Below, in pieces: positions 13,381 through 61,678 of a stretch of DNA of 64,000 nucleotides. The stretch covers positions 4,513-68,512 of the forward strand of contig CAYQLT010000003.1 in assembly GCA_964418425.1 (NCBI GenBank), in the 5' to 3' direction. The translations under genes were made by a program, and so were the position numbers. Every line of letters begins with the position of its first letter. Positions within the stretch are counted from its first letter, which is position 1. This DNA is from an uncultured Clostridia bacterium. GTDB taxonomy: Bacteria > Bacillota > Limnochordia > Limnochordales > Geochordaceae. The notes below the pieces were generated by a model that did not search any database, was not told where the DNA came from, and was given only the letters and a program-made list of their open reading frames with translations.

Positions 13381-13383
13381 AGT

Positions 13384-26060: not shown

Positions 26061-26112
26061 GGCCCGCCCTCCTCTCGCAACCCTAGATGCTGCGCGGCGC
26101 GGTGAGCCACCC

Positions 26113-26457: not shown

Positions 26458-26459
26458 GC

Positions 26460-28209: not shown

Positions 28210-28215
28210 TGCGGC

Positions 28216-36993: not shown

Positions 36994-37007
36994 CTCCCGT
37001 CCCCCCG

Positions 37008-43400: not shown

Positions 43401-44840
43401 TCAGGGATGCCAGCAGTACGCCTGGTCCGCGGCCTGCCCGACCGGTTTCACCACGCCGCGGGCTTCCAGGCGCTCTAGCACGGCGCGGGCCACCGCCACC
43501 GAACGCTGGAGGAGCCGGGCCGCCTCGTCCACGCGGATGCGACCTTGGTCCCTGGCCGCTCGGGCCACCAAAAGCTCCTCGATGGCCAGGGGCGAGCCTG
43601 CTTTTTCGGCCGCCAGCAATCGGCGCACGAACCCCTCGTCCGGTTCGCCGCCGGGAAGAATCACTTTGACGAAATCCTCCGTGGATTGACCGTATTCCGG
43701 GGTGCCGTGGCCGCTGCGCAGGCAGCCTTCGAAGATGATATCCACGCCCCGGTCCGTCCGCTCCACGAGCCCCAGGCGTTTGAATGCATCCGCCAGCCGA
43801 GGATTGCGGGGAGCCGGCGGGGTGACCAGCAGGTTGTCGAGGCGCACCCCCTGCGGCAGGCCGCCGGGGTTGGCCACCTCGATGCGGTTCCGGTGCCACT
43901 GGACGTAGACGGCGCCCGGTCGTGCGTAATCCCGGTGGATCAGGGCGTTGTGGACGGCCTCCCGGAAGCTGCGTTCGTCGTATTCGGGCAGCGGGACCCG
44001 GTAGGGGCCGTCTTGAAGCTCGTGTTCGCGCCGTCGGGCCGCATAGCGCGCCGCCAGCTCCTCAGAGAGCCGGATGAGCGGCCGGCGAAAGAATTCGTTG
44101 ACCTCGACCCTGGTGCCGACCAGAACCTGGAAGGCCACCTCGTGGGTGGGCACCCGCCGGGCGATGGCCTCCTCCCGCCCGAAGAGGAGCATGCCCGCCA
44201 CCGTGACCTGTCGCACCTCGCCGTTGGCCTCCACCGCGCCGAGGGCCTTGGCCATCTCCAGGTCGTCCAGCTCCAAAAGCAGCGGGTCACCCCGATGGCG
44301 GCGGATCACCTGGCGGGCCCGCTCGAACTCCAGCGGGTCAAGCTCGTCCCAGCCGGCGCCCGGGAGGGCCAGCGCGGTATAGTCCAGGCCGCCCATGAAC
44401 GGGCGGGGCGTCATCTCGTGTTGGAAAAACGGGACGCACCTCGGGCGGCCATCGGCCCCCATCGCCCGGCGCAGGTATCGTCCCGCCGAGGTGGCCACTG
44501 CCCGTTCCATCCTGGGAACCCGTATGACGACCACGTCCTTGCCGTCGATGCGGACCACCGCACAATCCGTGACCACGGGCGGAACTGTGCGGGCCTGAAT
44601 GAGGGCCTGCAGGCGCAGCGGATCGGTGGTCAATCGGTGGCGCGGCCTGGCGCCCGTGACCCGCCCGTCGTCTTCGACCCCTACCAGCAGCACGCCGCCT
44701 GCACCGTTGGCCAGGCAGACCACGGCTTCTACGAGGTCTGTGTCGCCGAGCGCCGCTCTCTCTTCGCCCTTGAACTCCACCGTGAAGCTTTCCCCGCCGA
44801 GGATGAGCTGGCGAAGCTCCTCAACAGGGAAGACCGTCAT
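43401..44840 (-). CDS. AlbA_2 (Schlafen-type) / HATPase_c_4 / wHTH protein (RecG-like putative DNA-binding regulator)
   Basis: ESFTVEFKGEE...AVVCLANGAGGVLLVGVEDDGRVTG is the AlbA_2 part, NALIHRDY...IEVANPGGLP follows, and the C-terminus is winged-helix-like. Confidence 0.8.
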   Translation of the reverse strand: MTVFPVEELRQLILGGESFTVEFKGEERAALGDTDLVEAVVCLANGAGGVLLVGVEDDGRVTGARPRHRLTTDPLRLQALIQARTVPPVVTDCAVVRIDGKDVVVIRVPRMERAVATSAGRYLRRAMGADGRPRCVPFFQHEMTPRPFMGGLDYTALALPGAGWDELDPLEFERARQVIRRHRGDPLLLELDDLEMAKALGAVEANGEVRQVTVAGMLLFGREEAIARRVPTHEVAFQVLVGTRVEVNEFFRRPLIRLSEELAARYAARRREHELQDGPYRVPLPEYDERSFREAVHNALIHRDYARPGAVYVQWHRNRIEVANPGGLPQGVRLDNLLVTPPAPRNPRLADAFKRLGLVERTDRGVDIIFEGCLRSGHGTPEYGQSTEDFVKVILPGGEPDEGFVRRLLAAEKAGSPLAIEELLVARAARDQGRIRVDEAARLLQRSVAVARAVLERLEARGVVKPVGQAADQAYCWHP

Positions 44841-47087: not shown

Positions 47088-50000
47088 ATGATGCACGGGC
47101 ATAGACGCGGTCCGACCCTCAGGACTTACGTCGCCGTGCTATGGGCTACTGCCTGCGTGCTGGCCGCTGCCTTCCCCTGGCCGGCGGCGGCCGAGGGGCT
47201 CACGCCCCTGGCAGCAGCAGGCCCCAGCTCGGCGGTGCGCCCGGAGGGATACCAAGAACAGTTCGTTCAGCCCGCGGGGCAACTGGCGAACTCCGGGGCC
47301 AAAGTGCTCATCATCCGGGAATTCTACGGTGACCGGCCCTGGAACAACTGGCCCGAGAGCTCCAACGTTTTGGTGCTACAAAGCTTCGGCTTCACCGAAG
47401 GCACCTACGGAGCGCAGAACACCGGCGACAAGTACCTCATCGCCGGGATGGATAACTCCAGCAACTTCTCCGACATCGACTTCTCGAAGTTCCAGGTCGT
47501 CATCGTCGAAAACGACAACTCCCAGGCCTTCTTCGATGCCCTCGCCACGCGCTGGGATGACATCACCCGGTGGGTGGCCGATGGAGGGGTGCTGGTGTTC
47601 CACGGCGCCGAGGTCTCGTGGCACGGAGGGAGGTACGGCATCAGTGACCCACCAGATCCAAACAACCCTCGCAACGTCATCCGCCCACCAGGGATGACGC
47701 TGGAGCAAAGCGCCCACAACGTCTGGTTCGCCCCACCGGGAGTCCTCTATAGCAATTACGTTGATCCAACCGCCTACTCTGAGTACGCCTCCATCACCGC
47801 AGGCATGATTAGCCCCACATGGGGCAACTACACGAGCCACGACGTCTTTTACAACGTCACCGAGTCAGGCACTTACGACGATGGCCCCGGCTATATAGCC
47901 CGCCTGGAAGTGCTAACCGTGGACTCGCCGAATACGCGACGTGCCACGAGCTTCGTGTACCGCTACTTGAAAGACAACACAAGCGACGGCGGCTGCGTGT
48001 ACTTCGGCGGGCTGACATTGGAATGGGGCTACTATTACAACTACGACTATGGCCGCAAGATGCTGCCGCAGCTCCTGTCCTGGGCCTTAAGTTGTGCCGC
48101 ACCCCCGCCGCAGCCTACCGGGGTCCCAGACATATCCGTCATCCCTCCCGTCATCGATGTTACTCTCAACGAAGGCGCTCTCGGCCAGGCTCACGTGGAG
48201 GTCAAGAACGATGGTGACGCGGAGCTTGCAGTCGAGAACGTGTCCTTCTCAGGAGACTGGGCAAGCTGGGCGAGCGTAGAGCCTCTTTCGGCGACGGTCA
48301 GCCCGGACAGCTCGGTACCGTTTGAGGTCAGCATCAATCCAGGTTCGGCCGAACCAGGGACATATCGCATCGACATGACCATCTCGAGCGACGACCCTGA
48401 CGAACCGGAATTCGTGGTGCCAATGATCGTCGAGATCCAGGGACCAAACATCGCGGTAGCACCTGCGTCACTATCCGCGACACTGGTCCAAGGACAAGTC
48501 GATGAGACTCGAACGCTGAACATCCGAAACGTCGGCAACCGGGACCTCAATGCCATCAACTTGAGCGCTGACGTTGGCTGGATCTCGCCTGGCACGCACG
48601 CACCAGCCCTAGCTCCTGGCGGACACATGGACGTCCCGGTGCGATTGGATGCGACCGCGCTATCTCCTGGCATTTACCCTGCACTGTTGACTGTTTCTTC
48701 CGACGACCCTGACGGGCCTGTCTCGGTGCCCGTCCAAATCACCGTACTGTCCCGGAACGAAGTTGCGGCCCTGTACGTGTCGCCGACCAGCCTGGAAGCG
48801 CAGGACATGGTTCCGGGCGAAATCCGGCACTTGAGCCTCGACGCTATCAACACCGGTAACGTCGCTTTAGACATATTGGTTGGCACGGCCGGGAACGCCA
48901 CCTGGCTGACAGTCGCCCCGACCACGTTCTCTGTCGGGCCTGGAGAAGTCCGCCGCCTGGATGTGACCTTCAATGCCGCGGATCTAAGCCCTGGCGATTA
49001 CAACGCTTCGCTTAGGATGAGTGCTCCGCAACTTGAATCTCCCGTGGAAGTACAGGCTACTATGGCCGTCGTACAAGGTCCGCCGCCGGTGCAACCGGTG
49101 CTGGGCGTCGTACCCAGGTACATATCACCCAATGACGACTTCATGGATCGGGGAATCGCTACCATCAACTGGGACATTCTCAACGTAAGCGAAGCCCTCG
49201 TCGGAATGGCCATCTTGGACCAAACAGGCCGCGTGATCCGGAGCCTGCTTGGGTCGGGAACGGGGCTGCGCCTGGACTGCAACCGGCCGTTTGGAACGCC
49301 CGACAACGGCTACCTCCCGATCTCCGTGCAACGAGGCGCCGTGACCCAGGCCTCCTGGGATGGGCGCGATGAAAGCGGACATGTGGTTGAAGAGGGCGAA
49401 TACACCGCCGTACTGATGGCCAAAGATGACGCTCAGCGCTACGCCTGTGCGACGAGGCTCGTCGGCGTCGACACCACTCCGCCGGACGTCTCGATCCGTG
49501 TTCTCTCTCCAACGGGACAGCCTTATGCCGAAGGCGAAATTCCTACCGTCTATTACGAGGTGGTGCTTGAGGTATCCGCACATGATGAGCTCTCCGGGAT
49601 CAATTTCCCGTCGGCCGACGACCCAAACTTCGCGCGGCTGCGACCCCGGATCACGGTCAAGCAGGCCAATATGCCCCCGGAGGAGCAGCTGGAGGTTGTT
49701 ACCCAGGAATACACCGTCAGCGCGGACGGCCGGGAAGCAACTTTCCGGTTCCGATACCGCGTGGTCAAGGCCACGCTGGAAGACGAAAGAGCGGGCCTGG
49801 GATGGGACGGGCCAGCGTCAGTCACGGTGAATGTAGCCGACAGGTCGTACGCTCCGAACGATAGAACCCAACCGTTCGGGGAGCTGTTCTACGTCAATAC
49901 CCAGGGGCCGAGGGTGGCCATCACGGGCGTAAGCCCCGGGAGCAACGCGAAGGACGACCCGTTCCGGCCGGAGTTTAGGAACGGGGAATTCACCAGGTCG

Positions 50001-50663
50001 AGGATCTCGGTGAGATACACAGCCAACGACCCGAATCTTGAGGGCACCGTGTACCTGAAGATCTATCCGGGGCAGTTCCAGAGCATAACCCGAGAGCAAT
50101 TCGACGCAAACAACCCCTATCCGATTCGCGTACTCGACCCCATCTCTACCGGGGCTCTCGAGCAGAGTGGCGACGGCTTTAGCAAAGAGGTGACCTTCGA
50201 ATGGGACGGCCGGGATGCGCTCGGCAACTTCGTGAGGGCAGGTACCTACACCCTGGTGGCGGCAGCGGACACGGTCGTCCCGGCTGCCGAGGAAAACCAG
50301 GCAGCCCAAGTGCGGCCGTCGGTGGACACGGACGACGAACGCATCTTCGTCACCTTCCCTCCCATGAGCATCGGCGAGCTGCACGCCTTCCCCAACCCCG
50401 TCCGGTCGGGCCGTCCCGTCACCTTCGTCCTCGACCTCAACCGCCCGAGCGAGGTCATCGTGGAGCTGTATTCGACTGCCGGTCACCGGATCAACACCGT
50501 CTCCTTTAACGGAAACATTGGGCGGCAAGAGTATGTCTGGTCAGCGGTCACCGATGCCGATGGCAACCCATTGGTCAACGGGCTGTACCTGGTGAAGGTG
50601 ACGGTCTTCGACGAGGCGGGGGCGCCCACGTTTCGGATCGGAAAGCTGGTGGTGGTGCGCTAG
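47088..50663 (+). CDS. large secreted multidomain surface protein ending in a T9SS-CTD/FlgD-Ig-like domain
   Basis: ATG 47088 lies after GGAGGG, followed by a signal peptide (TYVAVLWATACVLAAAFPWPAAA). Next come a GATase1/ThuA-like N-domain (VLIIREF...VVIVENDN...WVADGGVLVFHG) and three Ig-fold repeats of HYDIN/choice-of-anchor-D style (NDGDAELAV...ISSDDPDEPEFVVPM; NVGNRDLN...VSSDDPDGPVSVPV). Two FlgD-Ig-like modules follow (ASWDGRDESGHVVEEGEYTAV; FEWDGRDALGNFVRAGTYTLV). The terminal 90 aa read FPNPVRSGRPVTFVLDL...VELYSTAGHRI...NGLYLVKVTVFD...KLVVVR. Confidence 0.8.
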   Translation: MMHGHRRGPTLRTYVAVLWATACVLAAAFPWPAAAEGLTPLAAAGPSSAVRPEGYQEQFVQPAGQLANSGAKVLIIREFYGDRPWNNWPESSNVLVLQSFGFTEGTYGAQNTGDKYLIAGMDNSSNFSDIDFSKFQVVIVENDNSQAFFDALATRWDDITRWVADGGVLVFHGAEVSWHGGRYGISDPPDPNNPRNVIRPPGMTLEQSAHNVWFAPPGVLYSNYVDPTAYSEYASITAGMISPTWGNYTSHDVFYNVTESGTYDDGPGYIARLEVLTVDSPNTRRATSFVYRYLKDNTSDGGCVYFGGLTLEWGYYYNYDYGRKMLPQLLSWALSCAAPPPQPTGVPDISVIPPVIDVTLNEGALGQAHVEVKNDGDAELAVENVSFSGDWASWASVEPLSATVSPDSSVPFEVSINPGSAEPGTYRIDMTISSDDPDEPEFVVPMIVEIQGPNIAVAPASLSATLVQGQVDETRTLNIRNVGNRDLNAINLSADVGWISPGTHAPALAPGGHMDVPVRLDATALSPGIYPALLTVSSDDPDGPVSVPVQITVLSRNEVAALYVSPTSLEAQDMVPGEIRHLSLDAINTGNVALDILVGTAGNATWLTVAPTTFSVGPGEVRRLDVTFNAADLSPGDYNASLRMSAPQLESPVEVQATMAVVQGPPPVQPVLGVVPRYISPNDDFMDRGIATINWDILNVSEALVGMAILDQTGRVIRSLLGSGTGLRLDCNRPFGTPDNGYLPISVQRGAVTQASWDGRDESGHVVEEGEYTAVLMAKDDAQRYACATRLVGVDTTPPDVSIRVLSPTGQPYAEGEIPTVYYEVVLEVSAHDELSGINFPSADDPNFARLRPRITVKQANMPPEEQLEVVTQEYTVSADGREATFRFRYRVVKATLEDERAGLGWDGPASVTVNVADRSYAPNDRTQPFGELFYVNTQGPRVAITGVSPGSNAKDDPFRPEFRNGEFTRSRISVRYTANDPNLEGTVYLKIYPGQFQSITREQFDANNPYPIRVLDPISTGALEQSGDGFSKEVTFEWDGRDALGNFVRAGTYTLVAAADTVVPAAEENQAAQVRPSVDTDDERIFVTFPPMSIGELHAFPNPVRSGRPVTFVLDLNRPSEVIVELYSTAGHRINTVSFNGNIGRQEYVWSAVTDADGNPLVNGLYLVKVTVFDEAGAPTFRIGKLVVVR

Positions 50664-50682
50664 CGCCGCGGGCGAAGATGGT

Positions 50683-50718
50683 GGGCGCACGGGCCGATGG
50701 AACCGAGCCCGTGCGCCC
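50683..50718 (+). terminator. perfect 12-bp stem-loop (GGGCGCACGGGC-12 nt-GCCCGTGCGCCC) 20 nt after the surface-protein stop; terminator or attenuator candidate
   Basis: Read directly from the sequence. There is no U-tract, so it may act as a partial terminator or RNA-stability element. Confidence 0.4.
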
Positions 50719-50813
50719 CGGCCCGGAGCGAGCGGCCTTGGCGGCGATCCGGGCACGTGGGTCGGGAAGATGCGCATCGACGGCCGCAAGACGCACATCG
50801 AGGAGGCAAGGCC

Positions 50814-51920
50814 ATGAGCAGAAAGGCCTTCACAAAAGCCCCGTGGATAGGGCCTCGGGCGGCAAGGACGCTGGTGGCCGCCTTGGCGACTGTGACCCTC
50901 TGCGCGCTGGGTGCGGTGGGCGTGGGGGCCGCCCCCGGCTTTCTGGATGACACGCCGGCTGCCTACCTGTACGGCAACCTGAGCGCCCGGGCCATCGGCA
51001 TGGGCGGAGCCTTTACCACCATGGGGGATACGCCGGCGGCCGCCCTGTACAACCCCGCCGCCGTGGCGGCCATGCCCGGGGTGAAGCTGGAGGGACTGTA
51101 CGTCTTTTTCGAGCCTCTGCAGCTCAACGTGGTCAGCCTTTCCCTGGGCAGCCTGGCTGTCAACTACGTGGCGCTGGACGGCGGTGCGATCGAAGGTCGG
51201 AACGAGTCCGACACCGTCACCGGCAACGTGGGCAACAAGGAACAGGCCATCGTCGCAGGCCTCGGCCTGGGTGGCGGCTTTCTGAAGCTGGGAACCAACC
51301 TCAAGTACTTGACCCACCGGATCTCGTTCCCCGGGGGAGCCGCCGACGGCAAGGCCTTGGGGTTGGATGCAGGGCTGTTGCTGACCCTGGGGCTGCCCTG
51401 GCTCAACCTGCGCCTGGGGGTGGCGGCCAGGGACCTGCCCCTCGCACCCCTGGCGGAGGCGCTCTCCGAGGGAAGAAAGCCGGCCGAGCTGTTAGGCCGG
51501 GAACCCAAAGGAACGGTCATGGTCTGGAGGGAGGGCGACCAGCTTTACGCCGAGGAGATCCCGACCACCCTGCGGGTGGGCCTGAGCGCGGAGGTTCTGC
51601 TCGTCACCCTTGCCCTGGAGATCGACCATCTCAAGGCGGAAGGCGGGCCGGAGGACAGCGTCATCGGGCGCATCGGAGCGCAGTTTAACCTCGGGAACGT
51701 CAAGCTGCGGGCCGGAGCCTACACCGACCCGACCCCCCTCAGCCAGCTCACGGCGGGGGCGGGTGCGGACAAGGGCCAGAAGTCGCTTCTGGAAGGCCTG
51801 CACCTCACGGCGGGGATTGGTGTGCGCTTCACGCGCAACATCGGCCTTGATTACGCTCTCGAGGACTCGCCCGTCGGCCTGCGCCACTATCTGGCAGCAA
51901 ACTTCCAGTTCGGCGGCTGA
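50814..51920 (+). CDS. outer-membrane beta-barrel protein, PorV/PorQ/FadL-like
   Basis: ATG 50814 lies after GAGGAGG, with signal peptide LVAALATVTLCALGAVGVGAAP. The N-terminal motif is SARAIGMGGAFTTMGDTPAAALYNPAAVA. Alternating strands run to the C-terminal YLAANFQFGG. Confidence 0.6.
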   Translation: MSRKAFTKAPWIGPRAARTLVAALATVTLCALGAVGVGAAPGFLDDTPAAYLYGNLSARAIGMGGAFTTMGDTPAAALYNPAAVAAMPGVKLEGLYVFFEPLQLNVVSLSLGSLAVNYVALDGGAIEGRNESDTVTGNVGNKEQAIVAGLGLGGGFLKLGTNLKYLTHRISFPGGAADGKALGLDAGLLLTLGLPWLNLRLGVAARDLPLAPLAEALSEGRKPAELLGREPKGTVMVWREGDQLYAEEIPTTLRVGLSAEVLLVTLALEIDHLKAEGGPEDSVIGRIGAQFNLGNVKLRAGAYTDPTPLSQLTAGAGADKGQKSLLEGLHLTAGIGVRFTRNIGLDYALEDSPVGLRHYLAANFQFGG

Positions 51921-52012
51921 GTCCCGGGCGGCGGAGGCCCGGCGCACCCGGCGCCTGACCCGGGACCCTGCCGTACGCCCCGCCGGCAGCAGGCCGGCAC
52001 CGGGGGAGGGGG

Positions 52013-55000
52013 TTGGGTGTGTCGGAAGCCCCGGCTCGTAAGGGCGGGCCGGGGCTTCCGGCTGCCCATGCCCTGGCCGTCGGACTGTTCGTGCGGGTGG
52101 CGACGGTATGCGTGGTGGCCGTTTCGGCTGCCGCCGGCGCCTCCGGGTCCGACGACGCCCAGGCGCCTTCCGGACTTCAGGTGAACGGCCTCAAGACCTG
52201 GAGTCTGAAGTACGCCTGGGGCGACCTTCGCGGGCTGGACGACCTGGAAGGCTACCGGGTCAACGAACTGAACCTGGAGCAGTCCCTGGCGGTGGATGTC
52301 ACCGGAAATCTGGCCCCGGGCATGCGGGTGGATGCCCACCTGGACGATCACCAGGCCGGCAACCTGCAACTGCTAACCTTGCGTCTGGACGGAGGCCCGC
52401 TACAAGCCACCTTCGGCGATTTCACCCACACCTCACCCAACCCCTACACGGTCTACGGCAAACGCCTGCGGGGTATGGAACTGAACCTGCGCGTGGGCCC
52501 GGTGGCGGCCCGGCTGGACGTGGCCCGGCTGGAGGGCCTGTCCGCCAGCCGCACCTTCCGGGGAACCTCCGCCGCCGAGCAGGTGGTCTACCGGGCAGGT
52601 GCGGCCTACGCTCCCCGGCGTGAGGCCGGGGGCGTCCTGACCGGCGACTGGCGGGGGCTTGCGCACCTGGCCCTTCGTGAAGCCTTCGATCCGGACTTCA
52701 TGGAGGTCCGGCTGCGCTACGAGGATGCCCGGGGAGAAAGCCTCAAGGCCTACCTGGAACGGCATCTGCTGGGTTTTATCTACCGAGACGCCGACAACCC
52801 CCATGGGGTTCTTGCCGCAGGGGACGCCCTGGCGGTCCCGCCCGGGGCCTATGCGGCCATCCCGCCGGGCGCGGCGCTGGATGCGCCCCAGGGCCAGGCT
52901 TTCCTGGTGCTCAGGCGTGCACCTCTTCAGCTCCTGCGGGACCAGATCCGCCAACTTGTGGTCGAATACACCCGTCGCACCGGGGAGAACCGCCAGTACC
53001 CCTGGGTGGTGGGAAGCCTCGCGGAACTGGACTTCCTGGTGGGACTGCTGCGCGACCATGCTCGTCTGCAAGCCGGGCCCGCCGAACAGCCCGGGAGCAG
53101 CCTCGACGCCCCTCTGCCTGACTGCGAGCTGGAAAACCCCGTTCGCTGCGAAAGGGGCCGATTCTACGATCTGGGACAGCCGCTGGTAACGCCAGGAAGC
53201 GTCCGCATCGTGTTTCACCGGGTCAAAGACGCAGCTCCTGTTCCAGCCGAGCAGATCCCCGGCCTGCGGTGGCGGATTTTGGAAGAGGAAGGGATTCTCA
53301 ACGTCTTTCCCTCTCTTGACGAAACCGCGGCCACGGAGCCGGGGTACCAGGACGTGGAAGTCAGCTATCGCTACACCCTGTCCGGGGGCATCTATTTCCT
53401 GGGCGCAAACCTGGTGCGGGGAAGCGAACGCGTCTACCTCAACGGCCAGCTGCTGCAACGTGGCGTGGACTACCACCTCGACGACGAGCTGGGCGTGCTC
53501 ACCCTTTTCCGGGTTGTCACCCCTTCCGACACCATCCGGGTGGACTATGAGTTCTACGCCGGCCCCCTCGGCGCAGCCCGCCCGTTCAAGACCGACTTTT
53601 TTGCGGCCTCTATCGCCTACGACGCGCCCGCTCCCGGCCGCGCCGGGGAAGCCGATGCGGCGTCGACCCGCCCCGAAGGCCCCGCCCTCTCAGGTGCGCC
53701 GCCTCGGGTACGCCTGGAGGTGGTGCAATCCCGCGACCAGCGCCCGTCGCCTCTCCCGGATGACGTGGCCACCCTGCCCAACACCCACACCGTGGCCGGC
53801 CTGTACACCGCCTTCGCGGTCCCCTGGCCCGAGAGGTCGGATGCAAAGCAAGGGCCGGCCTCTCCTTTCGGCCCGGCGCCGGAGCCGTTGTCCGTTGAGG
53901 TGGCTCTGGGATTGAGCCACGACGAGGCTCCCGTGGACTTGTCTTCCCGCCCGCACCAGCCCAACGCCATCAACGCCCTGATGGCTGACCCCGCTGTCGG
54001 TTTGCTTTTCGTGGGGCACCGGGCAGGGCTCAGCGTAGGGCGAGAGCTGGCGGCGGGCGGCGGCCGGTGGGTCCACTACGGTCCCGGGCAGGGGCTGGGG
54101 GGCCAGAGCGTGCTGTCGGCGGCGGCCACACAGCTGGGATGGCTGTTTGGAACCGAAAGCGGGCTTACCTTTGCTGCGGCCCCCGCTGACGCCCTGGACC
54201 GCGTCGACGCCTGGCAGCGCTACTATCCCTCCAACGGGTTACCCGCGGCACCGGTTCAGGCCCTGGCCGTAGTTGCAGCCCCTCTGGCCGATGAACCGCA
54301 GGTCTGGGTGGGCACCCCGGAGGGCCTGGCTTCGGCTCCCCTCTCGCGGCTTGCCGACGGCTGGCAGGTTTACACCACCCGCACCCATCCGGGGCTGCTC
54401 TCGGACCGCGTGTACGCGCTGGCTTTCGCCGGGGACCGCCTGTTCGTTGGCACCGACCGGGGTCTGGCCCAGGTCGACGGCCGGGACGTGCGGGGCGTGG
54501 ACGGGGTTCCGGCCTCGCTGGAGGGCGCGCCCGTTTGGGCGCTGGCCGTCTCGGCGCGCCCCGGCCGGGAGGCGCTCCTGTTCGTCGCCGGGCCGAAGGG
54601 GCTCTGGCGGTGGGACCTTGCCATGGGAACCTGGGACCCACTCGAGTCCCGCCCTGTGGAGGCCGTCCTCGGCTCGCCCTCCTATGTATGGTACACGGTC
54701 GGCGGTCAGCTCTACGTGGCGCCGGACGAGGCCCCAGAACCCCCAGGCCCGATCCCCGTGACCCGGCCGGACGGAAGCCCGCTGGCGGGGGTCACGTCCC
54801 TGGCGGCAGACCCCTGGCTTACCGGAGCGATCTGGGCCGCTGTGCGGGGACAGGAGGGAAGTGGGCCGGAGCTGTGGCACATCCAGCCGGCCGCGGGGGC
54901 CGGTGACCGCTTCGCCGCCGCCATGACGAAATTGCCTGCCTCCGCCACCGGGATTGCGGCCGAAGACCCGCGGCGCTTCCGTGACCCCGACGTCGTACCC

Positions 55001-56692
55001 GTGCGCCAGGGAGCCGCCGGCCGCCTGCGCTTGAGCCAGCGCTTCGGTCGCCTCACCCTGCAGGGGCTGTACGAAAGTGTGGAGCCGGGCTTCGCCGCCA
55101 TCGGATGGCTCCAGCGGCGAGACGTCGAGCGCTGGCAGCTCGAAGCCCGATACCGGTTCTCTCCCCACCTGGAGGCGCGCGTCGCCCACGGCGTAGCTCG
55201 CGAGGCCCTGCGCGCCCTTGACACCCTTCCGGTGGCCGGGCAGGCCACGATACCCACCGGCGCTTCGCCGCCTTCGCCCTCCATCACCCGCACGGAGCTT
55301 CTCGGCCTGGGATGGTCGCCCGACCCACTCCCGGACGCATCCGGCTGGCCGTGGGGGGAGCTGTCGCCCGATAGTTTCCTGTGGCCATTGGGGGGGACTT
55401 TGGCCGACGACGCGGTCCGGCCCCTGACCCCCCAGAACCCAAGGGGGGTAAGCCTCACCCTCGCGCAAGCCCGCGTCGACGACCGTCTCGACCGTCCGGG
55501 GTCGGAGAAGCAGATCGACCACCTGCGCCTGAGCGCGCGCACCCAATGGCTGGAAGGACGGGCGGACGCGGGACTTATCCTGGACGCGGAGTTCTTGCAG
55601 GATCTTCCGATGCCGCCTGCGTCCCGACGGCGCTATCACGTGGCGGCTGCCATGGCCTGGAGACCGCTGGATGGCCTTGAGATCCGGACCGAGTACGCGC
55701 GCCCGGTGGTCTACTACGGCCCGAGTCCCGGCTACGGCCTGAGTCTCAGTTACAGCCCGAGTTCGGGCGCGTCGGCCGGGCTGCCCGACGCAGCCTCCCC
55801 TTCCCCCCGGGTGCAGGGCGACGAGCAGTTTCGCTGGGAGCTGCAGGCCCAGCTCTCCCCCGGAAGCGTACGGCTTGCCCCGAGTTACCGGGAGTTTCAC
55901 CGGGTCCCGGTGGGCGAGCCGGCCGGGCAGCCGGAGGAGCATCACCGCCGCTTCGCCCTGGAGGCCACCCTACAAACCTGGCGCGCCGGAGCGCTCAGCC
56001 TGTCCCCTTCCGCCCGGCTGACGTGGAGCGACTACCGGCCCTCGCCCGCTCGCCTGGCGGAGCGCTCGGAAGCCCTGGGCAGCCAGCTTTCGCTGGATCT
56101 GCGCGGCGGACCTCTTGAGGCTCGCGCCAGCTTCGAGCAGGCGGCGACCCGATATCCGGGCCAGGAGAAAGAGCAGCGCCAGCAGTGGCTGGCGCTGGAA
56201 GCCCGGATGCGGTGGTCTTCCGCGCTGACGCAACGTCTGCTCTACCGGATCCACCACGAGCGCTCCGTCTCGCCTCGCTTCGGAGACCAGCGCCTGTTCT
56301 CCACCCAGCTCCAGGGACGCCTGGAGTGGCAGCCTGCGTCGTGGTGGACGCTGGCCCTGACCGCCGGCACGGAAGGTAGCACCTCTTCCGGAGCCCGCTC
56401 CTCCCCCACCGATGTGACAAGCCAGTTCGCCCGGGCGGAGGCGGAGCTGGCCCTCTCCTCTGCCACCACCCTTACCCTCAGCGTGGGAAGGCTGCGACGC
56501 GCCGGGCTGGAGCGCGGAGCTGCGGTGGACCGGCGCACCACCAGCTGGACAGCGACCGGACGCTACCTACCCGCACCCGGCTGGGAGGCCGCGCTCACAG
56601 CGGGCGTGGTGAGCGGGGCACAGGGTTCGGGAGACGACGCGGGCGGGTATTTTACCCCGTTTGCCGGTCTTGACGTGCGCGTGGCGTTCTAG
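52013..56692 (+). CDS. giant (1559 aa) outer-membrane-associated protein: SprA_N-like N-region, propeller-like middle, beta-barrel C-region ending in Phe
   Basis: TTG start after GGGGGAGGGGG, with an N-terminal hydrophobic segment. The N-region reads LNLEQSLAVDVTGNLAPGMRVDAHLDD...LQATFGDF...VYGKRLRGMELNLRVG...GLSASRTFRG. The middle has blades such as VYALAFAGDRLFVGTDRGLAQVDG. The last roughly 500 aa are amphipathic strands ending FAGLDVRVAF. Confidence 0.7.
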   Translation: MGVSEAPARKGGPGLPAAHALAVGLFVRVATVCVVAVSAAAGASGSDDAQAPSGLQVNGLKTWSLKYAWGDLRGLDDLEGYRVNELNLEQSLAVDVTGNLAPGMRVDAHLDDHQAGNLQLLTLRLDGGPLQATFGDFTHTSPNPYTVYGKRLRGMELNLRVGPVAARLDVARLEGLSASRTFRGTSAAEQVVYRAGAAYAPRREAGGVLTGDWRGLAHLALREAFDPDFMEVRLRYEDARGESLKAYLERHLLGFIYRDADNPHGVLAAGDALAVPPGAYAAIPPGAALDAPQGQAFLVLRRAPLQLLRDQIRQLVVEYTRRTGENRQYPWVVGSLAELDFLVGLLRDHARLQAGPAEQPGSSLDAPLPDCELENPVRCERGRFYDLGQPLVTPGSVRIVFHRVKDAAPVPAEQIPGLRWRILEEEGILNVFPSLDETAATEPGYQDVEVSYRYTLSGGIYFLGANLVRGSERVYLNGQLLQRGVDYHLDDELGVLTLFRVVTPSDTIRVDYEFYAGPLGAARPFKTDFFAASIAYDAPAPGRAGEADAASTRPEGPALSGAPPRVRLEVVQSRDQRPSPLPDDVATLPNTHTVAGLYTAFAVPWPERSDAKQGPASPFGPAPEPLSVEVALGLSHDEAPVDLSSRPHQPNAINALMADPAVGLLFVGHRAGLSVGRELAAGGGRWVHYGPGQGLGGQSVLSAAATQLGWLFGTESGLTFAAAPADALDRVDAWQRYYPSNGLPAAPVQALAVVAAPLADEPQVWVGTPEGLASAPLSRLADGWQVYTTRTHPGLLSDRVYALAFAGDRLFVGTDRGLAQVDGRDVRGVDGVPASLEGAPVWALAVSARPGREALLFVAGPKGLWRWDLAMGTWDPLESRPVEAVLGSPSYVWYTVGGQLYVAPDEAPEPPGPIPVTRPDGSPLAGVTSLAADPWLTGAIWAAVRGQEGSGPELWHIQPAAGAGDRFAAAMTKLPASATGIAAEDPRRFRDPDVVPVRQGAAGRLRLSQRFGRLTLQGLYESVEPGFAAIGWLQRRDVERWQLEARYRFSPHLEARVAHGVAREALRALDTLPVAGQATIPTGASPPSPSITRTELLGLGWSPDPLPDASGWPWGELSPDSFLWPLGGTLADDAVRPLTPQNPRGVSLTLAQARVDDRLDRPGSEKQIDHLRLSARTQWLEGRADAGLILDAEFLQDLPMPPASRRRYHVAAAMAWRPLDGLEIRTEYARPVVYYGPSPGYGLSLSYSPSSGASAGLPDAASPSPRVQGDEQFRWELQAQLSPGSVRLAPSYREFHRVPVGEPAGQPEEHHRRFALEATLQTWRAGALSLSPSARLTWSDYRPSPARLAERSEALGSQLSLDLRGGPLEARASFEQAATRYPGQEKEQRQQWLALEARMRWSSALTQRLLYRIHHERSVSPRFGDQRLFSTQLQGRLEWQPASWWTLALTAGTEGSTSSGARSSPTDVTSQFARAEAELALSSATTLTLSVGRLRRAGLERGAAVDRRTTSWTATGRYLPAPGWEAALTAGVVSGAQGSGDDAGGYFTPFAGLDVRVAF

Positions 56693-56705: not shown

Positions 56706-59700
56706 GTGGATAACGGCTCGCTTCGGCGCCTGGAGAAGCCCCCGCGATTCCGGCCCGTGCTGGCAGGTTGCTGGCGAGGCCCCCAGGAATTTTCAACGCG
56801 GAACAGGCTGTCGTCGGTGAAGCGGTCAGGCTCCTCCAGGTATTTTCAGTTGTTCCGGCCGGCGCTCGAGTGGGGGCCGGAGGCCGTGGTGCGGCCTCGT
56901 CTGCTCAAGCCGCTGGAGGCCGCCTGGCGCCACAGCTCCCTGGTGCTCGTCTGGGGGTTCGCCGGACTGGGGAAGACCTGGCTGGTACGACAGCTATGCG
57001 GTCGCCTGGGCGAGTCGGCCATGTGCCTGTGGCGTACGGCCGGCCCGGAGGATGCCGACGGGCGGTGGCTGGCAGGTCGCATCCGCGATGCTCTCGGTGA
57101 GCTTGTGCCCCTGCTTCGACACCGCGAGGCGCCCCCGGCGCAGGCGGACCTGGAAGCGCTGGCCATGGATCTGGCCGACGCGTGTACCGAGGCCCTGCGC
57201 CGCGACGTGCTCCTGGTGCTGGACGATTTCCATCTCACCTACGACCCGGCCGCCAGGGCGTCCTGCGGGCAGGCGTTCGTCACGCTGCTGGCGGAGCAAG
57301 CGCCACCCCAGCTGCACCTCATCGCGGTCGCACGCGGTGCGGACTTCCTGTCCCTGGGGTCGCTGGCCTCTCGGGGGAGGCTGTTCGAGTGCGGGCCAAC
57401 CTCTCTTCGATGGACGGCGGCGGAGCTGGGGGAGCTCATCGAGCGGCTGGCTGGCCGGCCCGCCGACGCGCAGGAAGCAGAGGCAGTCTGCCGCTGGTCG
57501 GGCGGGCTTGTGGAGCCCGTGGCAGCGGCGCTGAGAGCCGGGCCCGGGGTTCTGGAGGCCGCAGTAGCCCATTTTCGTGGGACGACGCCCCTAAGCGCAC
57601 CGTCTGCCGCACTGTACCCGGCCACGGCGTCGCTGCAGACCATCCTCGCCCGCCTGCCGGCCAACATGGCGTCATTCATCCAGCGCTGCGCCCTGGCTCC
57701 CCAGCTGACTCCCGAGGTGGCTGCGTCGCTATCGGGCATGAGCGAGGCACAAGCCCGGGCGCTGCTCCACGAGCTGGCCCGTGGGGGCGGACTGCTGGAG
57801 GTGCTTCCCGGCGAGGAGCGGTTCCGCTTTCACGAGATGTGGCGGCAGGCGGTTCGCAACCTCTTGCTGGTGCGCGGCGGGCGGGCGGCACTGGCAGAGG
57901 CTTGCCGGAGGACCGCAGCCGCCATGAAGGCTGCCGGCCATCCCGAAGCGGCCGTGGACCTCCTGCTGGACGGGGGGCAGTGGGAGCAGGCGGCCGACGC
58001 CACCGCGGCGCTGGTCCTCCCCCTGCTGGAGCAAAACCTCCATCGCCGCCTGTGGCGCTGGATCGAGGCCCTTCCCCACGAAGCCTGCCAGCGCCATCTG
58101 GGGTTGTTCTCCCTGGCCAGGGGAGTCGCCCTGCGCCACGAAGGCCGCCTGGAAGAGGCCGAGAGAGCTTTGGAGCAGGCCGAGCGGGCGGGAGCTCCTC
58201 CTGTACGCTGCCTGCTCGCCCGGGCCGATGTGGCCGCTGCCCGGGGCGAGTATGACCGCTGCGCCGAACTGGCCATGCAGGCTGTTCGTCTCCTGCCCGC
58301 TTCTGGAAGCTCGGAGCCCCGCTGCGAACGCGAGGGCGAGGCATTCACAGGTCCCCCTGCCAGCCCCGGGCCTCCAGCCTCGTACGAGGCGGCACGGATC
58401 CTGGAACTGGCGGCAATGCGCCTGTGGTACCGGGGCGAGCGCTCCCAGGCGGCCGAACTGCTGGGCCGGGCGCTGGAGGGCTACCGGCTGGCCAGAGCGA
58501 GGCCCCAACAGGCGTTTTGCATGGTGCTGCTGGCCCTCACCGAGCACGAGCCGGCAGGCCGGTTTCGGCACATCCTGGACGTCATCCGGGCCGCCCGAGA
58601 AGTGGCCCCCGATGACCCGGGCGGGGTGCTCTCGTATTACGAAGCCTCCACCTGGCACTGTCTGGGTGAGTACGAACGGGCGGAGCCCCTCTACATGGAG
58701 GCTCTGCGAGCCTGCCGGGAGACGGGAAACCTCAGTCTGGAGAGCCTGGCCGTGGCCAAGACGGGGCTGCTGGCTGCCGAGCGCCACCGTCTGCACGAAG
58801 CCCGGGAACGGCTCCTCGAGGCTCGCCGGCTTTTAGAAGGGCTGGGCGAACCCATGCGGCTGGCCAACGTCCACTGGGGCCTGAGCCTGGTCTACCGCAT
58901 GGAAGGCGAGGCGTCGCAGGCCGCCGCCCACGCCCGGGAAGACCTGCGCCTGATGGAAAAGCTCGGCTTCGAGGTCTACGTGGCCGAATCGCAGCTCAAC
59001 CTGGCCTTCTGTGCCCTGGCCGCCCAGGATCTGGCATCGGCCTGCGAACTGCTGGAGCGCGCCCGCGAGGCCCTAACCCGCTGGCAGTCTGCCCATAACC
59101 TGACCCTGTGGAACCTGGCCCGGGCGGCCTGGCTCAAGGCCTCTCTGCCACCCGGCCCGGGCCGGGAACAAGGGGTGGACGCCTGCCTGCAGGCGGCGCT
59201 GCGCCTGTCCGAAGCGGGTGGGTACCGGTTTGCCTGGAGGCGGGAGGCGGCCATCTGCCGGTTGTTGCTGGAGGACTATCTGCGCCGCCATCCTGGAGAC
59301 ACCTACGCCCGGGCCGCGTGGGCCGAGGCGGCTGCGCAGCCCCTGGGGCCCTCGGAGGAAGCGCCGTGGCGGCTCCTGTTCGGGCTCGATGGCGAAGCGC
59401 CCGCCCCCGCACCGGCGCGCGAGGCGCCGGCCCCGGCACGCGTGGTCGTCCGCCTGCTGGGGGCCTTTGAGCTGCGGGTGGGCGACCGGCCGGTGCCGTG
59501 GGGGAGCTGGCGCAGCAAGGCTGTTCGGCTGCTGCAGTTTCTGCTGCTGCGCTTTGGTCGCTGGGTGCCCACCGACGAACTGCTGGAACGGTTCTGGCCG
59601 GCGGTTGAGCCCGCTGCCGGCAAGCGTGCACTGGCCGTGACCGTTCACTACCTTCGCCGCCAGCTGGCCCCCTGGGGCCTGCGGGACCTGGTGCAATCCC

Positions 59701-60206
59701 GCAAAGGTAGCTACCGGGCCTCGGAGGCCGGGCTGGCGGGGCTTGAAGTTCAGGTGGACTTGCGGGAGCTGTCAAGCCTCCTGGGGAGCCTGCGCCGACA
59801 GTTCGATGGCAGCAAGGTGGAACAGCTTCTCGGGCTGTACCGGGGCGACCTGTTGCAGGAAAGCCCCTACGAAGAGTGGCTGGACCCCGAACGAGCCGCC
59901 CTGCGCGAAGAGGTGGTGCAGGTGGCCGAAGCTGCCGCCCAAAAGGCCCTCGAGGATCGCCAGTACGCCCGGGCCCGCCAGCTGGCCGGTCGGGCCCTGG
60001 AGCTGGACCCCCTGCGGGAGACGCTGCACCGCGTGCTGATCAGCGCGCTGCACGCCGAGGGCCGCCGCTCCGAAGCAGTTCGGCAGTTTCGGGCCTGCCG
60101 ACGGCTGCTTCGCCGCCAGCTGGGAGTCGCACCCGAACGGGAGACGGTAGAGCTGGTGCAGCGCATCCTGGACGGCAAGGCGCCGGGACGCCGGGCGGCC
60201 TCCTGA
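56706..60206 (+). CDS. large STAND-type NTPase / TPR regulator with a C-terminal SARP (OmpR-type wHTH + BTAD) module
   Basis: P-loop LVWGFAGLGKTWLV, Walker B VLLVLDDFH, and about 600 aa of helical/TPR repeats. The C-terminus is VVVRLLGAFELRVGDRPVP...AVRLLQFLLL...ELLERFWP, then LYRGDLLQESPYEEWLDPERAALRE. The start is uncertain (TTG 56661, GTG 56706 or later). Confidence 0.8.
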   Translation: MDNGSLRRLEKPPRFRPVLAGCWRGPQEFSTRNRLSSVKRSGSSRYFQLFRPALEWGPEAVVRPRLLKPLEAAWRHSSLVLVWGFAGLGKTWLVRQLCGRLGESAMCLWRTAGPEDADGRWLAGRIRDALGELVPLLRHREAPPAQADLEALAMDLADACTEALRRDVLLVLDDFHLTYDPAARASCGQAFVTLLAEQAPPQLHLIAVARGADFLSLGSLASRGRLFECGPTSLRWTAAELGELIERLAGRPADAQEAEAVCRWSGGLVEPVAAALRAGPGVLEAAVAHFRGTTPLSAPSAALYPATASLQTILARLPANMASFIQRCALAPQLTPEVAASLSGMSEAQARALLHELARGGGLLEVLPGEERFRFHEMWRQAVRNLLLVRGGRAALAEACRRTAAAMKAAGHPEAAVDLLLDGGQWEQAADATAALVLPLLEQNLHRRLWRWIEALPHEACQRHLGLFSLARGVALRHEGRLEEAERALEQAERAGAPPVRCLLARADVAAARGEYDRCAELAMQAVRLLPASGSSEPRCEREGEAFTGPPASPGPPASYEAARILELAAMRLWYRGERSQAAELLGRALEGYRLARARPQQAFCMVLLALTEHEPAGRFRHILDVIRAAREVAPDDPGGVLSYYEASTWHCLGEYERAEPLYMEALRACRETGNLSLESLAVAKTGLLAAERHRLHEARERLLEARRLLEGLGEPMRLANVHWGLSLVYRMEGEASQAAAHAREDLRLMEKLGFEVYVAESQLNLAFCALAAQDLASACELLERAREALTRWQSAHNLTLWNLARAAWLKASLPPGPGREQGVDACLQAALRLSEAGGYRFAWRREAAICRLLLEDYLRRHPGDTYARAAWAEAAAQPLGPSEEAPWRLLFGLDGEAPAPAPAREAPAPARVVVRLLGAFELRVGDRPVPWGSWRSKAVRLLQFLLLRFGRWVPTDELLERFWPAVEPAAGKRALAVTVHYLRRQLAPWGLRDLVQSRKGSYRASEAGLAGLEVQVDLRELSSLLGSLRRQFDGSKVEQLLGLYRGDLLQESPYEEWLDPERAALREEVVQVAEAAAQKALEDRQYARARQLAGRALELDPLRETLHRVLISALHAEGRRSEAVRQFRACRRLLRRQLGVAPERETVELVQRILDGKAPGRRAAS

Positions 60207-60351: not shown

Positions 60352-61515
60352 GTGACAGGTCGGATGCGCCTGACCGCTGTGGCCTCGCTGGCGCTGCTTC
60401 TCGTTGCCGGGATCAGCCTCGCGCTGGCGTGGTTTCTCCCGGCCGCAGTAGGGGCCAGCACAGAGGATCCCGAGGCCCAGTGGATGGTCTCGGGGCATTC
60501 GAACGAAGAGCGGGTCCACGAGACGTCTCTCGTAGAGGTCCGAGGGGCAACCGCCGCGCACTGCGGCCGTTGCCACTCCGAACAAGGGTTTGTTGCGTGG
60601 GTGCCGCAGTTGAAGGCCGGAAACCCGGGCCTTCTGGCGGGGCCCGACGGAAAGCCGGCCACGGTGGAACACCTGAAGAGCCTCGGGCTGACGGCCGACA
60701 CCGCCCGACCCATCACATGCGACGCGTGCCACACGGAGACCTACGAAACCCGGATCCGCGACTCGACCCCGATGCTGCCAGCGGGCTTCCAGGCGTCGGG
60801 AGTTGGAGCCGGAGCGCTGTGCATGACGTGCCACAACACCCGCAACGGACGCATTGAGTGGAACGTGGCCGACGTGAAGCGGTACACCGCGCCGCACCAC
60901 TCCGCGCAGGCGGACGTCATCATGGGTCAAAACGTGTACTTCCTGGACTTCGGCGCGGCCGACATGGTGTCGCCCCACGCGGCCTTCGTGGGCGACTCGT
61001 GCGTGACCTGCCACCTGGAGCTGGGCAAAAACGGGCACGAGTTCAAGCCGTCCGAGCAGGTATGCGCCAACTGCCACGGGCCGCAGCTGACCCCGGAGCG
61101 GGTTCAGAAGCCGGTGAAGGGACTGCTCGCCGAAGTGATGCAGGCCTTCAACAACCGGTTCCTGGCCCTCTACGCCGGCAAGGTCGCCCGGGCAGACCTC
61201 TGGGATCCCGAAACCGACCAGACGACCCGGGGTGCCAGCCTGAACGGGGCGGAGATCCGCTCGGTCGAGCTGTTGGGCATCCATGGCCAGATGGGCCTGA
61301 AGATGACCATGGCCGACGGGCGTGAGCTGTACAGCCAGCTGGGCGGCCTCAAGGACAGCGCCGGCAAGCCCGTTGTGCCCACCACCGACCCGCTGGTCAA
61401 GGCCGGGTGGAACTACCTGCTGGTGCTGTGGGATGGTTCCTACGGCGTGCACAACCCGAGCTTTGCCCGCACGGTGCTGCTCACGACCATCGGGGAGCTG
61501 AAGACCGGCCGCTGA
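60352..61515 (+). CDS. membrane-anchored pentahaem c-type cytochrome
   Basis: GTG start after GGAGAGGAGG, with a signal anchor LTAVASLALLLVAGISLALA. It has five CxxCH motifs (CGRCH, CDACH, CMTCH, CVTCH, CANCH). Confidence 0.85.
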   Translation: MTGRMRLTAVASLALLLVAGISLALAWFLPAAVGASTEDPEAQWMVSGHSNEERVHETSLVEVRGATAAHCGRCHSEQGFVAWVPQLKAGNPGLLAGPDGKPATVEHLKSLGLTADTARPITCDACHTETYETRIRDSTPMLPAGFQASGVGAGALCMTCHNTRNGRIEWNVADVKRYTAPHHSAQADVIMGQNVYFLDFGAADMVSPHAAFVGDSCVTCHLELGKNGHEFKPSEQVCANCHGPQLTPERVQKPVKGLLAEVMQAFNNRFLALYAGKVARADLWDPETDQTTRGASLNGAEIRSVELLGIHGQMGLKMTMADGRELYSQLGGLKDSAGKPVVPTTDPLVKAGWNYLLVLWDGSYGVHNPSFARTVLLTTIGELKTGR

Positions 61516-61642: not shown

Positions 61643-61678
61643 GCTGGTGAGCCCGGTGCAAGCTGGTGAGCCCGGTGC
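61643..61678 (+). repeat. tandem duplication of GCTGGTGAGCCCGGTGC (two 17-nt copies, 19-nt period) spanning the methyltransferase start codon
   Basis: Copies are at 61643-61659 and 61662-61678. The GTG in copy 2 (61666) opens the long frame. The GTG in copy 1 is out of frame and terminates after 11 codons. Confidence 0.7.

Follow-up and report, generated by a model that had tools for sequence, protein, structure and literature searches.

The 64,000-nt stretch of DNA analysed here in full (the window; contig CAYQLT010000003.1 of an uncultured Clostridia bacterium, GenBank assembly GCA_964418425.1) has a G+C content of ~70% and carries, on its plus strand between positions 47088 and 56692, three consecutive genes that we refer to as A, B, and C. 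Each of the three products has a signal-peptide-like N-terminus, and the genes are separated by gaps of 150 nt (A to B) and ~95 nt (B to C). An earlier description made from the letters alone (the sequence-only reading) had taken these three plus-strand genes for a secreted cargo with a C-terminal sorting domain (CTD), a PorV-like barrel, and a giant SprA-like barrel. The open reading frames (ORFs) are as it described them, with identical gene calls for A, B, and C in two public Logan assemblies (SRR11582148, SRR11582147). Our analyses point to a self-contained outer-membrane export and display cassette that shares an ancestor with the translocon of type IX secretion (system abbreviated T9SS), a reading to which we assign a probability of roughly 0.7.

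The order of the three genes is conserved well outside the window. In 29 distinct genome-derived loci (window included), the gene immediately before the giant encodes a B homologue, which is in turn immediately preceded by a tail-bearing gene, often with a 4-nt overlap. These upstream cargo proteins are 672–808 aa long, or 1289–1311 aa in two ‘Bacillota’ metagenome-assembled genomes (MAGs), and every one of them ends in a common tail of ~95 aa. In one locus (L057; L-numbers denote loci and P-numbers proteins from relatives), gene calls place a 3445-aa cargo and a 305-aa gene in the cargo and carrier positions, and two further genome loci have the same three-gene layout from gene calls alone, their small middle genes being unscanned. 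Searching Joint Genome Institute (JGI) metagenomes with the tail motif alone (GLYLYVL[VI][TS]) gave 45 loci, and the tail is the C-terminus of the protein in 45/45. A PorV-like gene follows immediately in 44 of them, the 45th contig stopping at that point, and the giant comes next in nearly all contigs that are long enough. Overall, the cargo–carrier–giant order is kept across ~75 loci at 22–35% protein identity. Because it is conserved at only this level of identity in the 29 genome-derived loci, the arrangement is far beyond chance, and the trio is a conserved operon. The sequence-only reading had proposed looking for synteny in related genomes, and the order proved to be very strongly conserved. 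In a Bipolaricaulota MAG (L019, 1591–11978), two tandem pairs of cargo and PorV-like genes (752 + 321 aa and 738 + 323 aa) precede a single giant, which suggests that cognate cargo–carrier pairs share one translocon.

Relatives of C were collected in several ways. A word-indexed search of 5.8 billion proteins returned five relatives of C and two of B, and a word search with the family alignment was swamped by propeller-bearing sensor kinases and diguanylate cyclases. With a propeller-less C as the query, phmmer against 1.84 billion cluster representatives gave 57 matches at a threshold of E 1e-30 and 97 at E 1e-10, most of them 1310–1460 aa long. C is 74–89% identical to its nearest family members and at most ~41% identical to the next. 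A scan of GTDB species representatives found ~30 members of the C family, labelled as Bipolaricaulota/Acetothermia, ‘uncultured Thermotogae’, Thermotogota, and ‘Bacillota bacterium’. The family lacks a curated model, and the single member named by its source is annotated only as ‘two-component regulator propeller domain-containing protein’.

C is homologous to SprA, the giant barrel of the T9SS, in both sequence and predicted fold. Its match to the SprA model TIGR04189 spans 66 aa (aa 448–513 against model positions 585–652) and scores 25.8 bits (E 1.4e-6). Its relatives score 14.7–38.8 bits, each giant matching the same part of the model (~583–716), and the three true SprA proteins that were scanned (from Gemmatimonadota, Eisenbacteria, and Zixibacteria) score 464–654 bits. 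For profile–profile comparison, we used as references seven SprA proteins, which are ORFs of 2017–2216 aa from the GTDB scan that weakly match the family profile (three of the seven checked on TIGR04189). When 24 C-family members were aligned with these seven by hhalign, the probability was 99.2% and E was 1e-19. Segment-wise hhalign, with a 63-sequence family alignment and reversed SprA as the control, resolved four segments, two strong and two weak, that are collinear in C and SprA (Table 1); all reversed-SprA controls gave P >= 0.18. One of these segments, the mini-domain, is the sole part of C that plain hidden Markov model (HMM) searches recognise as SprA, and this region gives a match in all relatives. 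No SprA counterpart was found by these comparisons for an alpha/beta insert (aa 200–385), for aa 530–645, or for the propeller (aa ~640–975). In a profile search of the PDB, the propeller matches those in the periplasmic part of Bacteroides hybrid two-component sensors (4a2l, E 2.3e-21) and, at a weak level, PorZ (5m11); one relative, P0003, matches the PorZ model at 1.4e-5. The sequence-only reading had likened the N-terminal region of C to SprA_N repeats. A Pfam scan of C at E up to 1 gave no SprA_N match and only a weak DUF2460 match, and that resemblance survives only at the profile–profile level.

The predicted structure of C gives a similar picture. We modelled the window protein with AlphaFold2, with the propeller excised and with 63 family sequences, and obtained a mean pLDDT of 84.9, a pTM of 0.75, and ~35–39 long beta-strands. 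The long-strand region noted in the sequence-only reading is modelled as a very large beta-barrel, and in a Foldseek search of the PDB SprA takes ranks 1–4: 8gl8_A (E 3.4e-14, TM-score over the query, TMq, 0.50), 8gl6_A (E 1.6e-13, TMq 0.57), 6h3i_A (E 3.4e-12, TMq 0.48), and 6h3j_A (E 1.1e-6, TMq 0.38). Deinococcus SlpA comes next among the folds (E 2.4e-6, TMq 0.26), with LptD and TonB-dependent receptors at TMq ~0.15, and the best SprA match leads the other barrels by 7–8 orders of magnitude in E and by a factor of two in TM-score. This model replaced an earlier one built from six sequences, for which pTM was 0.44 and the fold search was non-discriminating. C ends in ...LDVRVAF, and a terminal Phe is common in outer-membrane beta-barrels. 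Judged from profile comparison and the modelled fold, C is a true SprA homologue, strongly diverged and shortened; it is no SprA equivalog, because its score is far below 200 bits and SprA_N is not matched.

Parts of C also have relatives elsewhere. The mini-domain pattern VYLNG..L.RG.DY.IDYE.G occurs in proteins of 900–1015 aa from Armatimonadota and from a Methyloversatilis MAG (L048 7344–10061, L052, L053), and in a true SprA (L041, aa 631–668) the mini-domain weakly matches the phage tail-tube model NF052337 (1.1e-4). From these sequence matches, the mini-domain alone is not diagnostic of SprA. In addition, proteins of 1400–1812 aa (P0130 in L058 964–6171; P0126, P0158, P0172) match only the N-terminal strands (query aa 2–141), and one such protein adjoins LptF/LptG. 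These may represent SprA-like barrel families that lie between the C family and canonical SprA.

B is homologous to the PorV/PorQ family, as the sequence-only reading had supposed. It matches the NCBIfam model PorV_fam (NF033709) over its full length with 41.5 bits and E 1.2e-10 (aa 51–366 on model positions 6–320 of 326). Among the B-type relatives, PorV_fam is matched by 25/25 (E up to 0.01, best 3.6e-31), PorVQ2 by 24, and PorQ by 21 (all NCBIfam models), and the top-scoring relative probably passes the PorV_fam cut-off of 90 bits. B carries the motif SARAIGMGGAFTTMGDTPAAALYNPAAVA and a conserved N-terminal motif, G.SAR.LG.GGAF.A..DD..A...NPA.L. For a FadL-like 14-strand barrel whose loops would bind the CTD, the signs are indirect only: a signal peptide, an alternating strand pattern, weak Pfam matches to Toluene_X/FadL, and, in the relatives, a C-terminal ...RF (...NFQFGG in the window protein); a Pfam scan of B itself gave zero matches. 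The sequence-only reading had proposed searching with SprA and PorV/PorQ models, and the significant matches that these gave for C and for B recur in all distant relatives. By its sequence, B is a PorV/PorQ-family outer-membrane protein and the putative cognate carrier or anchor of A.

The product of A comprises, from N- to C-terminus, a signal peptide, an N-terminal domain (aa ~60–343), three HYDIN/BACON/choice-of-anchor-D Ig domains, FlgD-Ig-type domains, and a C-terminal sorting tail. Its best family matches are FlgD_ig (3.6e-16), HYDIN_VesB (6.5e-13), and BACON_2 (1.8e-11) in Pfam, and choice_anch_D (7.5e-13) in NCBIfam. The protein ends in ...FPNPVRSGRPVTFVLDL...VELYSTAGHRI...NGLYLVKVTVFD...KLVVVR, a tail that is like the CTDs of T9SS cargos. 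On the T9SS model TIGR04183 (Por_Secre_tail), it reaches 22.6 bits, the cut-off being 23 (aa 1101–1172 of 1191); in Pfam, it scores 25.7 bits on FlgD_ig against a cut-off of 27, and 14 bits on PF18962. The tails in general are sub-threshold in Pfam, with FlgD_ig equally near and CHU_C near as well in L004. In relatives, the TIGR04183 cut-off is reached in L004 (23.8 bits) and L010 (26 bits), and 17/27 cargos match this model (E up to 0.01). The tail of A aligns with the tails of 23 other cargos, and the common tail of ~95 aa reads NPV..a.F.y.lP.g...A.LRVY.vaG.LVfe....y.W.L....G..lA.GLYLY.vlvtD.g.S.vGrLVI.R. In the aligned tails, K or R precedes the hydrophobic C-terminal stretch; in known T9SS cargos, a near-invariant Lys near the CTD's C-terminal end is important for function (Lauber 2024, PMC10994853). 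The suggestion in the sequence-only reading that this tail follows the T9SS CTD/FlgD-Ig pattern holds in part: the motifs are present, the tail always stands at the extreme C-terminus, and the cut-off is passed in two relatives, but taken alone the tail of A is ambiguous between the two.

Tails of this type appear to mark a single protein in each cassette. An HMM built from the aligned tails matches solely the C-termini of genes upstream of PorV-like genes. Each cassette yields a single such match, or two in the case of L019, and no further protein is matched in the 64-kb window, in ~0.9 Mb of genome-derived sequence, or in the 45 loci from metagenomes, these last having been gathered with a narrow motif that divergent tags would escape. 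The 23-tail alignment was too divergent for a metagenome scan, and jackhmmer started from the window tail alone returned zero other tails; recovering them needed the HMM of aligned tails. The sequence-only reading had raised the idea of the tail as a tag borne by many proteins, and this is not what we find across the sequence scanned. The evidence points to one cargo per cassette, with each cassette apparently serving a single cargo.

The passenger portion of the cargo is more variable. An S8 peptidase domain is present in 26/27 cargos at this position, and A of the window is the sole exception. Its N-terminal region (aa 1–343; 47088–48116) gave no Pfam, NCBIfam, or PDB sequence match, and an uncharacterised domain stands where other cassettes have the S8 protease. 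By eye, its pattern VLIIRE...VVIVEND...GGVLVFHG resembles ThuA and class-I glutamine-amidotransferase-like folds. In L059, the orthologue of A (5988–8642) is 884 aa long and is without exactly aa 344–667 of A. The last ~230 aa of the two proteins, tail included, are ~99–100% identical, whereas the two C proteins are just 74% identical. The G+C content at third codon positions (GC3) is 0.746 for A overall, 0.714 for the Ig insert (the lowest of the region), 0.845 for the tail of A, and 0.81–0.88 for neighbouring genes. Because GC3 is low in the cargo and its insert and host-like in the tail, these sequence contrasts suggest that the passenger region has been remodelled and the tail kept.

Table 1. 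Positions of the cassette genes, their parts, and neighbouring features in the window (L-numbers denote loci from relatives; hhalign P values are for the comparison with SprA).
Feature	Position (nt)	Strand	Protein position (aa)	Description
Gene A	47088–50663	+		1191 aa
Ig insert in A	48117–49088	+	344–667	Three Ig domains; missing from the L059 orthologue (BLASTP)
Sorting tail of A	50388–50660	+	1101–1191	T9SS CTD-like; NP motif, G-L-Y-L motif, K six residues before the end
Gene B	50814–51920	+		368 aa
Gene C	52019–56692	+		1557 aa (1559 aa if TTG at 52013 starts it)
C, N-terminal strands	52175–52573	+	53–185	Versus SprA ~181–316; P 3.4e-7, 93% probability; reversed P 0.69; pLDDT 84–96
C, mini-domain	53165–53602	+	~385–530	Motif SERVYLNGQLLQRGVDY..D.ELG; versus SprA 590–667; P 2.7e-17 to 4e-17
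C, Reg_prop-type beta-propeller	53936–54943	+	~640–975	Inserted; hhalign versus SprA gives nothing
C, C-terminal barrel region	54943–56689	+	~975–1557	~25 long beta-hairpin strands; terminal Phe; DSSP strands of 12–19 residues, pLDDT mostly 84–97
C, first C-terminal strands			990–1064	Versus SprA 1365–1449; P 0.012
C, last ~150 aa				Versus last ~140 aa of SprA, end to end; P 9e-4
Menaquinone biosynthesis cluster	11812–19540	+		MenF, MenD, MenH-like hydrolase, MenB, MenA (UbiA family), MenE
Gas-vesicle cluster	25897–30457	mostly -		GvpL/GvpF 26460–27548, GvpF-like 28452–29540, GvpN-like AAA_5 ATPase 29537–30457
Rieske protein and cytochrome b	34696–37481	-		Adjoining genes; cytochrome b fused to a multihaem c-type cytochrome domain (812 aa)
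SLFN/AlbA_2 protein	43401–44840	-		With HATPase_c_4; upstream of the trio
STAND regulator	56817–60206	+		AAA_16/MalT-like NTPase, TPR, Trans_reg_C and BTAD (SARP-type)
Multihaem cytochrome	60352–61515	+		387 aa; MtrC/MtrF-like, c7-like matches
DNA methyltransferase	61666–62820	+		N6/N4 type; downstream of the trio
ORF	62951–64000	+		After the methyltransferase; no NCBIfam match

A comparison with the well-described T9SS is informative about how the cassette might work. The SprA barrel of Flavobacterium has 36 strands, is capped, and opens laterally, and PorV is docked across this opening; the substrate CTD binds PorV loops and the SprA wall, and energy from the GldLM motor pulls the PorV–substrate complex off (PMC10994853). 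C resembles SprA/Sov (TIGR04189; PDB 6H3I, 8GL6, 8GL8) in that SprA is its best PDB fold, with a TM-score of 0.38–0.57 over the query, in the collinearity of its N-terminal strands, mini-domain, and C-terminal strands, and in having a PorV-family gene and a CTD-bearing cargo as genomic neighbours. It has ~35–39 predicted long strands against the 36 of SprA, closure and strand number of the barrel in the C model being unverified. On the other hand, members of the C family are 1310–1560 aa long versus ~2000–2400 aa for SprA, the barrel of C being ~60% of the SprA length, and C has both the Reg_prop propeller and the alpha/beta insert, neither of which is found in SprA. It is also operon-linked to one cargo, and occurs in Bipolaricaulota and other non-FCB MAGs. 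B resembles PorV, PorQ, and PorV2 (NF033709, NF033711, NF052325) in its full-length match, its N-terminal motif, and, in relatives, its aromatic C-terminal residue; the B family is mostly 280–320 aa long, whereas Flavobacterium PorV has 402 aa. In the T9SS, type-B cargos cluster with PorP/SprF carriers, and the CTD-retaining PorZ sits permanently on PorQ (PMC10202324). B parallels PorQ–PorZ in adjoining a CTD protein, and there is a parallel as well to the type-B cargos with their PorP/SprF carriers, which belong to a more distant family; B matches no PorP/SprF model. The cassette tail is like a type-A CTD (TIGR04183/PF18962, with type-B CHU_C, PF13585, as a relative) in its length of ~90 aa, its place at the extreme C-terminus, and its NP, G.Y/L, and K/R-hydrophobic motifs. 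Unlike type-A CTDs, which number in the tens per genome, it is found on one protein per locus, and there is no PorU near the cassette. Two-partner secretion (TpsA/TpsB) offers an analogy only: there, too, a cargo gene stands beside its own outer-membrane transporter and the energy module is absent from the operon, but sequence and fold show no kinship, TpsB being an Omp85 barrel of 16 strands whose recognition target is a TPS domain at the N-terminus.

We infer the docking of B on C, the route through the barrel, and the role of B as a carrier from the SprA–PorV complex of Flavobacterium. By this analogy, A would cross the inner membrane via Sec, as its signal peptide indicates, and its C-terminal beta-sandwich tail would be recognised by loops of B docked on C. 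The cargo would then pass through C and exit bound to B, which would carry it or hold it at the surface. The strict 1:1 linkage of cargo and carrier genes suggests a cognate pairing and possibly a permanent anchoring. Together, the trio would form a module, possibly a minimal one, that exports or anchors its cargo. Because the cargo in nearly all relatives is a subtilisin-like protease, the usual role of the cassette is probably surface or extracellular proteolysis. The Acetothermia are peptide fermenters, for which an S8/S53 peptidase is listed as a secreted protease for extracellular peptide hydrolysis (PMC6092417 supplement), and a nutritional role of the cassette fits this listing.

Several observations weigh against the cassette reading. 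In one Bipolaricaulia MAG (K_2_bin.63; L003/L008), the giant has no PorV-like gene beside it, and no cargo with the tail. C is far under the equivalog cut-off of TIGR04189 (25.8 vs 200 bits), and B is below the curated PorV_fam cut-off (41.5 vs 90 bits). Sequence searches of the PDB with the family profiles did not recover SprA chains for C, and gave PorV at E 0.54 only for B; comparing the cassette with solved structures by sequence alone is thus uninformative. The TM-score of the C model normalised by SprA length is just 0.29–0.33, because SprA is twice as large, and C was modelled without its propeller. The tail of A is by itself indistinguishable from a generic FlgD-Ig domain. Finally, the motor genes needed in the known T9SS (PMC10994853) were seen near none of the loci, and the machine may be incomplete as described here. 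Set against the evidence as a whole, the sequence-only proposal of a divergent CTD-dependent module is supported, and nothing contradicts it outright; its concern that the tail might prove to be only a generic FlgD-Ig domain, absent from other proteins, is covered in part. In L003/L008 (4742–10410), an HtrA/DegP-like protease lies upstream of the giant and a Pup/UBact-proteasome cluster downstream.

The missing motor bears most directly on whether the trio simply supplies the translocon for a canonical T9SS that is complete, with the motor GldL/M, the ring GldK/N, SprE/PorW, the sortase PorU, and further CTD cargos encoded elsewhere in the genome. TXSScan found T9SS in Bacteroidetes only, and defines ten core components, including GldK/L/M/N, SprA, SprE, SprT, PorU, PorV, and PorQ (Abby 2016, PMC4793230). 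We found no GldK/L/M/N, SprE, SprT, or PorU among the window ORFs scanned or among five scanned flanking ORFs of L010; the absence of PorK/L/M/N and PorU from the window, pointed out in the sequence-only reading, holds for each sizeable ORF scanned. The gene-call Pfam lists of other loci (within ~10 kb) name no T9SS families. These searches covered cassette loci and their flanks, not whole genomes, and within that range only SprA-like and PorV/Q-like components of the ten are seen. Their reach leaves room for a canonical system, as does the narrow tail motif, which would miss divergent tags; T9SS genes are typically scattered, four components being modelled as loners (Abby 2016, PMC4793230), and in Flavobacterium the motor is needed to release the carrier–cargo complex (PMC10994853). 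However, the only models matched by the cassette proteins and scanned flanks are PorV/PorQ, SprA, Por_Secre_tail, and, weakly, PorZ and the PorU tail, and the tail HMM finds no second tagged protein in ~0.9 Mb or in 45 metagenome loci. Each cargo gene has its own carrier gene, as in L019, and C differs from SprA in architecture and falls far short of the equivalog score. In the metabolic-model tables of Acetothermia Ran1, the terms ‘gliding’, ‘Por secretion’, and ‘secretion system’ are missing, a weak indication, as these are curated tables and not a full annotation. On balance, we consider a canonical T9SS of this kind unlikely.

Two other explanations concern the function and kinship of C. 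B and C could form a surface attachment platform with no pore, such that the cargo crosses the outer membrane otherwise and is anchored to B by its tail, C being structural and its propeller binding a surface polymer. PorQ–PorZ and PorV–PorU show that PorV-like barrels can be permanent anchors for CTD-retaining proteins (PMC10202324), the Reg_prop propeller of C is of the type seen in PorZ and in glycan-sensing domains, and the next-best fold match, Deinococcus SlpA, is a structural giant barrel. Yet that match trails SprA by 7–8 orders of magnitude in E and twofold in TM-score, the homology with SprA is collinear in sequence, the cargo is unlinked to any other secretion-pathway genes, and in known systems PorV-like anchoring comes after passage through SprA; we regard a pore-less platform as very improbable. 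It is harder still to credit that C has no kinship with SprA and is a giant outer-membrane barrel of another kind (LptD-, SlpA-, or usher-like) with coincidental neighbours. Large barrels do tend to match each other in fold searches, and in the model with a pTM of 0.44, TonB-dependent receptors and SlpA nearly equalled SprA. The confident model, by contrast, sets SprA clearly apart from all other barrels, the profile–profile matches are collinear with clean reversed controls, and the gene order persists in ~75 loci despite identities of 22–35%.

If A, B, and C are an export and display cassette of shared ancestry with the type IX translocon, a further step would be to regard them as a stand-alone, motor-less secretion machine in atypical diderms, namely Bipolaricaulota, ‘Bacillota’ and ‘Thermotogae’ MAGs, and the high-GC lineage of the window. 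This we put forward tentatively. Were it true, a SprA–PorV translocon would work without the GldKLMN energy chain, and the cassette would be either an ancestral core of the Bacteroidota T9SS or a streamlined derivative of it.

The surroundings of the trio in the window are varied. Directly downstream of C lies the MalT/SARP-type STAND regulator, followed by the multihaem cytochrome (Table 1). The regulator adjoins C in L059 as well, and we considered it as a part of the cassette; this was rejected, as it adjoins C in close relatives only and not in distant loci, and its presence is probably lineage-specific, as a neighbour or a regulator. The Rieske protein and the multihaem cytochromes may relate to extracellular electron transfer. 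Near the end of the L059 locus, a second methylase carries Mrr_cat and restriction-endonuclease-like (NA-iREase1) domains. Like the SLFN/AlbA_2 protein, the DNA methyltransferase, and the ORF after it in the window, it looks like part of a variable set of defence or restriction-modification genes on the flanks of the cassette. Promoter and terminator scans of the window gave a background level only, and an Rfam scan gave zero matches.

The T9SS is described in the searchable literature as confined to the Bacteroidota/FCB superphylum (PMC4793230, PMC10202324), and in that literature we found no paper tying either SprA or PorV to any of Bipolaricaulota, Acetothermia, Limnochordia, and Terrabacteria. 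What is new here is a compact, apparently single-cargo cassette resembling the T9SS translocon in non-FCB lineages. This widens the known range of the translocon, and its hosts include a lineage with one closed genome, that of Acetothermia Ran1, which is reported to have no lipopolysaccharide (LPS) genes, a BamA-like gene, and a ‘simple diderm’ envelope (PMC6092417); Ran1 itself was not checked for the trio. In an LPS-less host, attachment of the cargo to anionic LPS by PorU would be impossible. Being much smaller, and having just one identifiable substrate and one carrier, the translocon is attractive for the structure and reconstitution of CTD-cargo passage, and whether the SprA–PorV step needs the GldLM motor becomes directly testable. 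The finding also exposes an annotation gap, in that the C family is without a curated model and its one source-named member bears a propeller label only. It also names a likely export route for the subtilisin-like protease, the listed extracellular protease in one such uncultured peptide fermenter.

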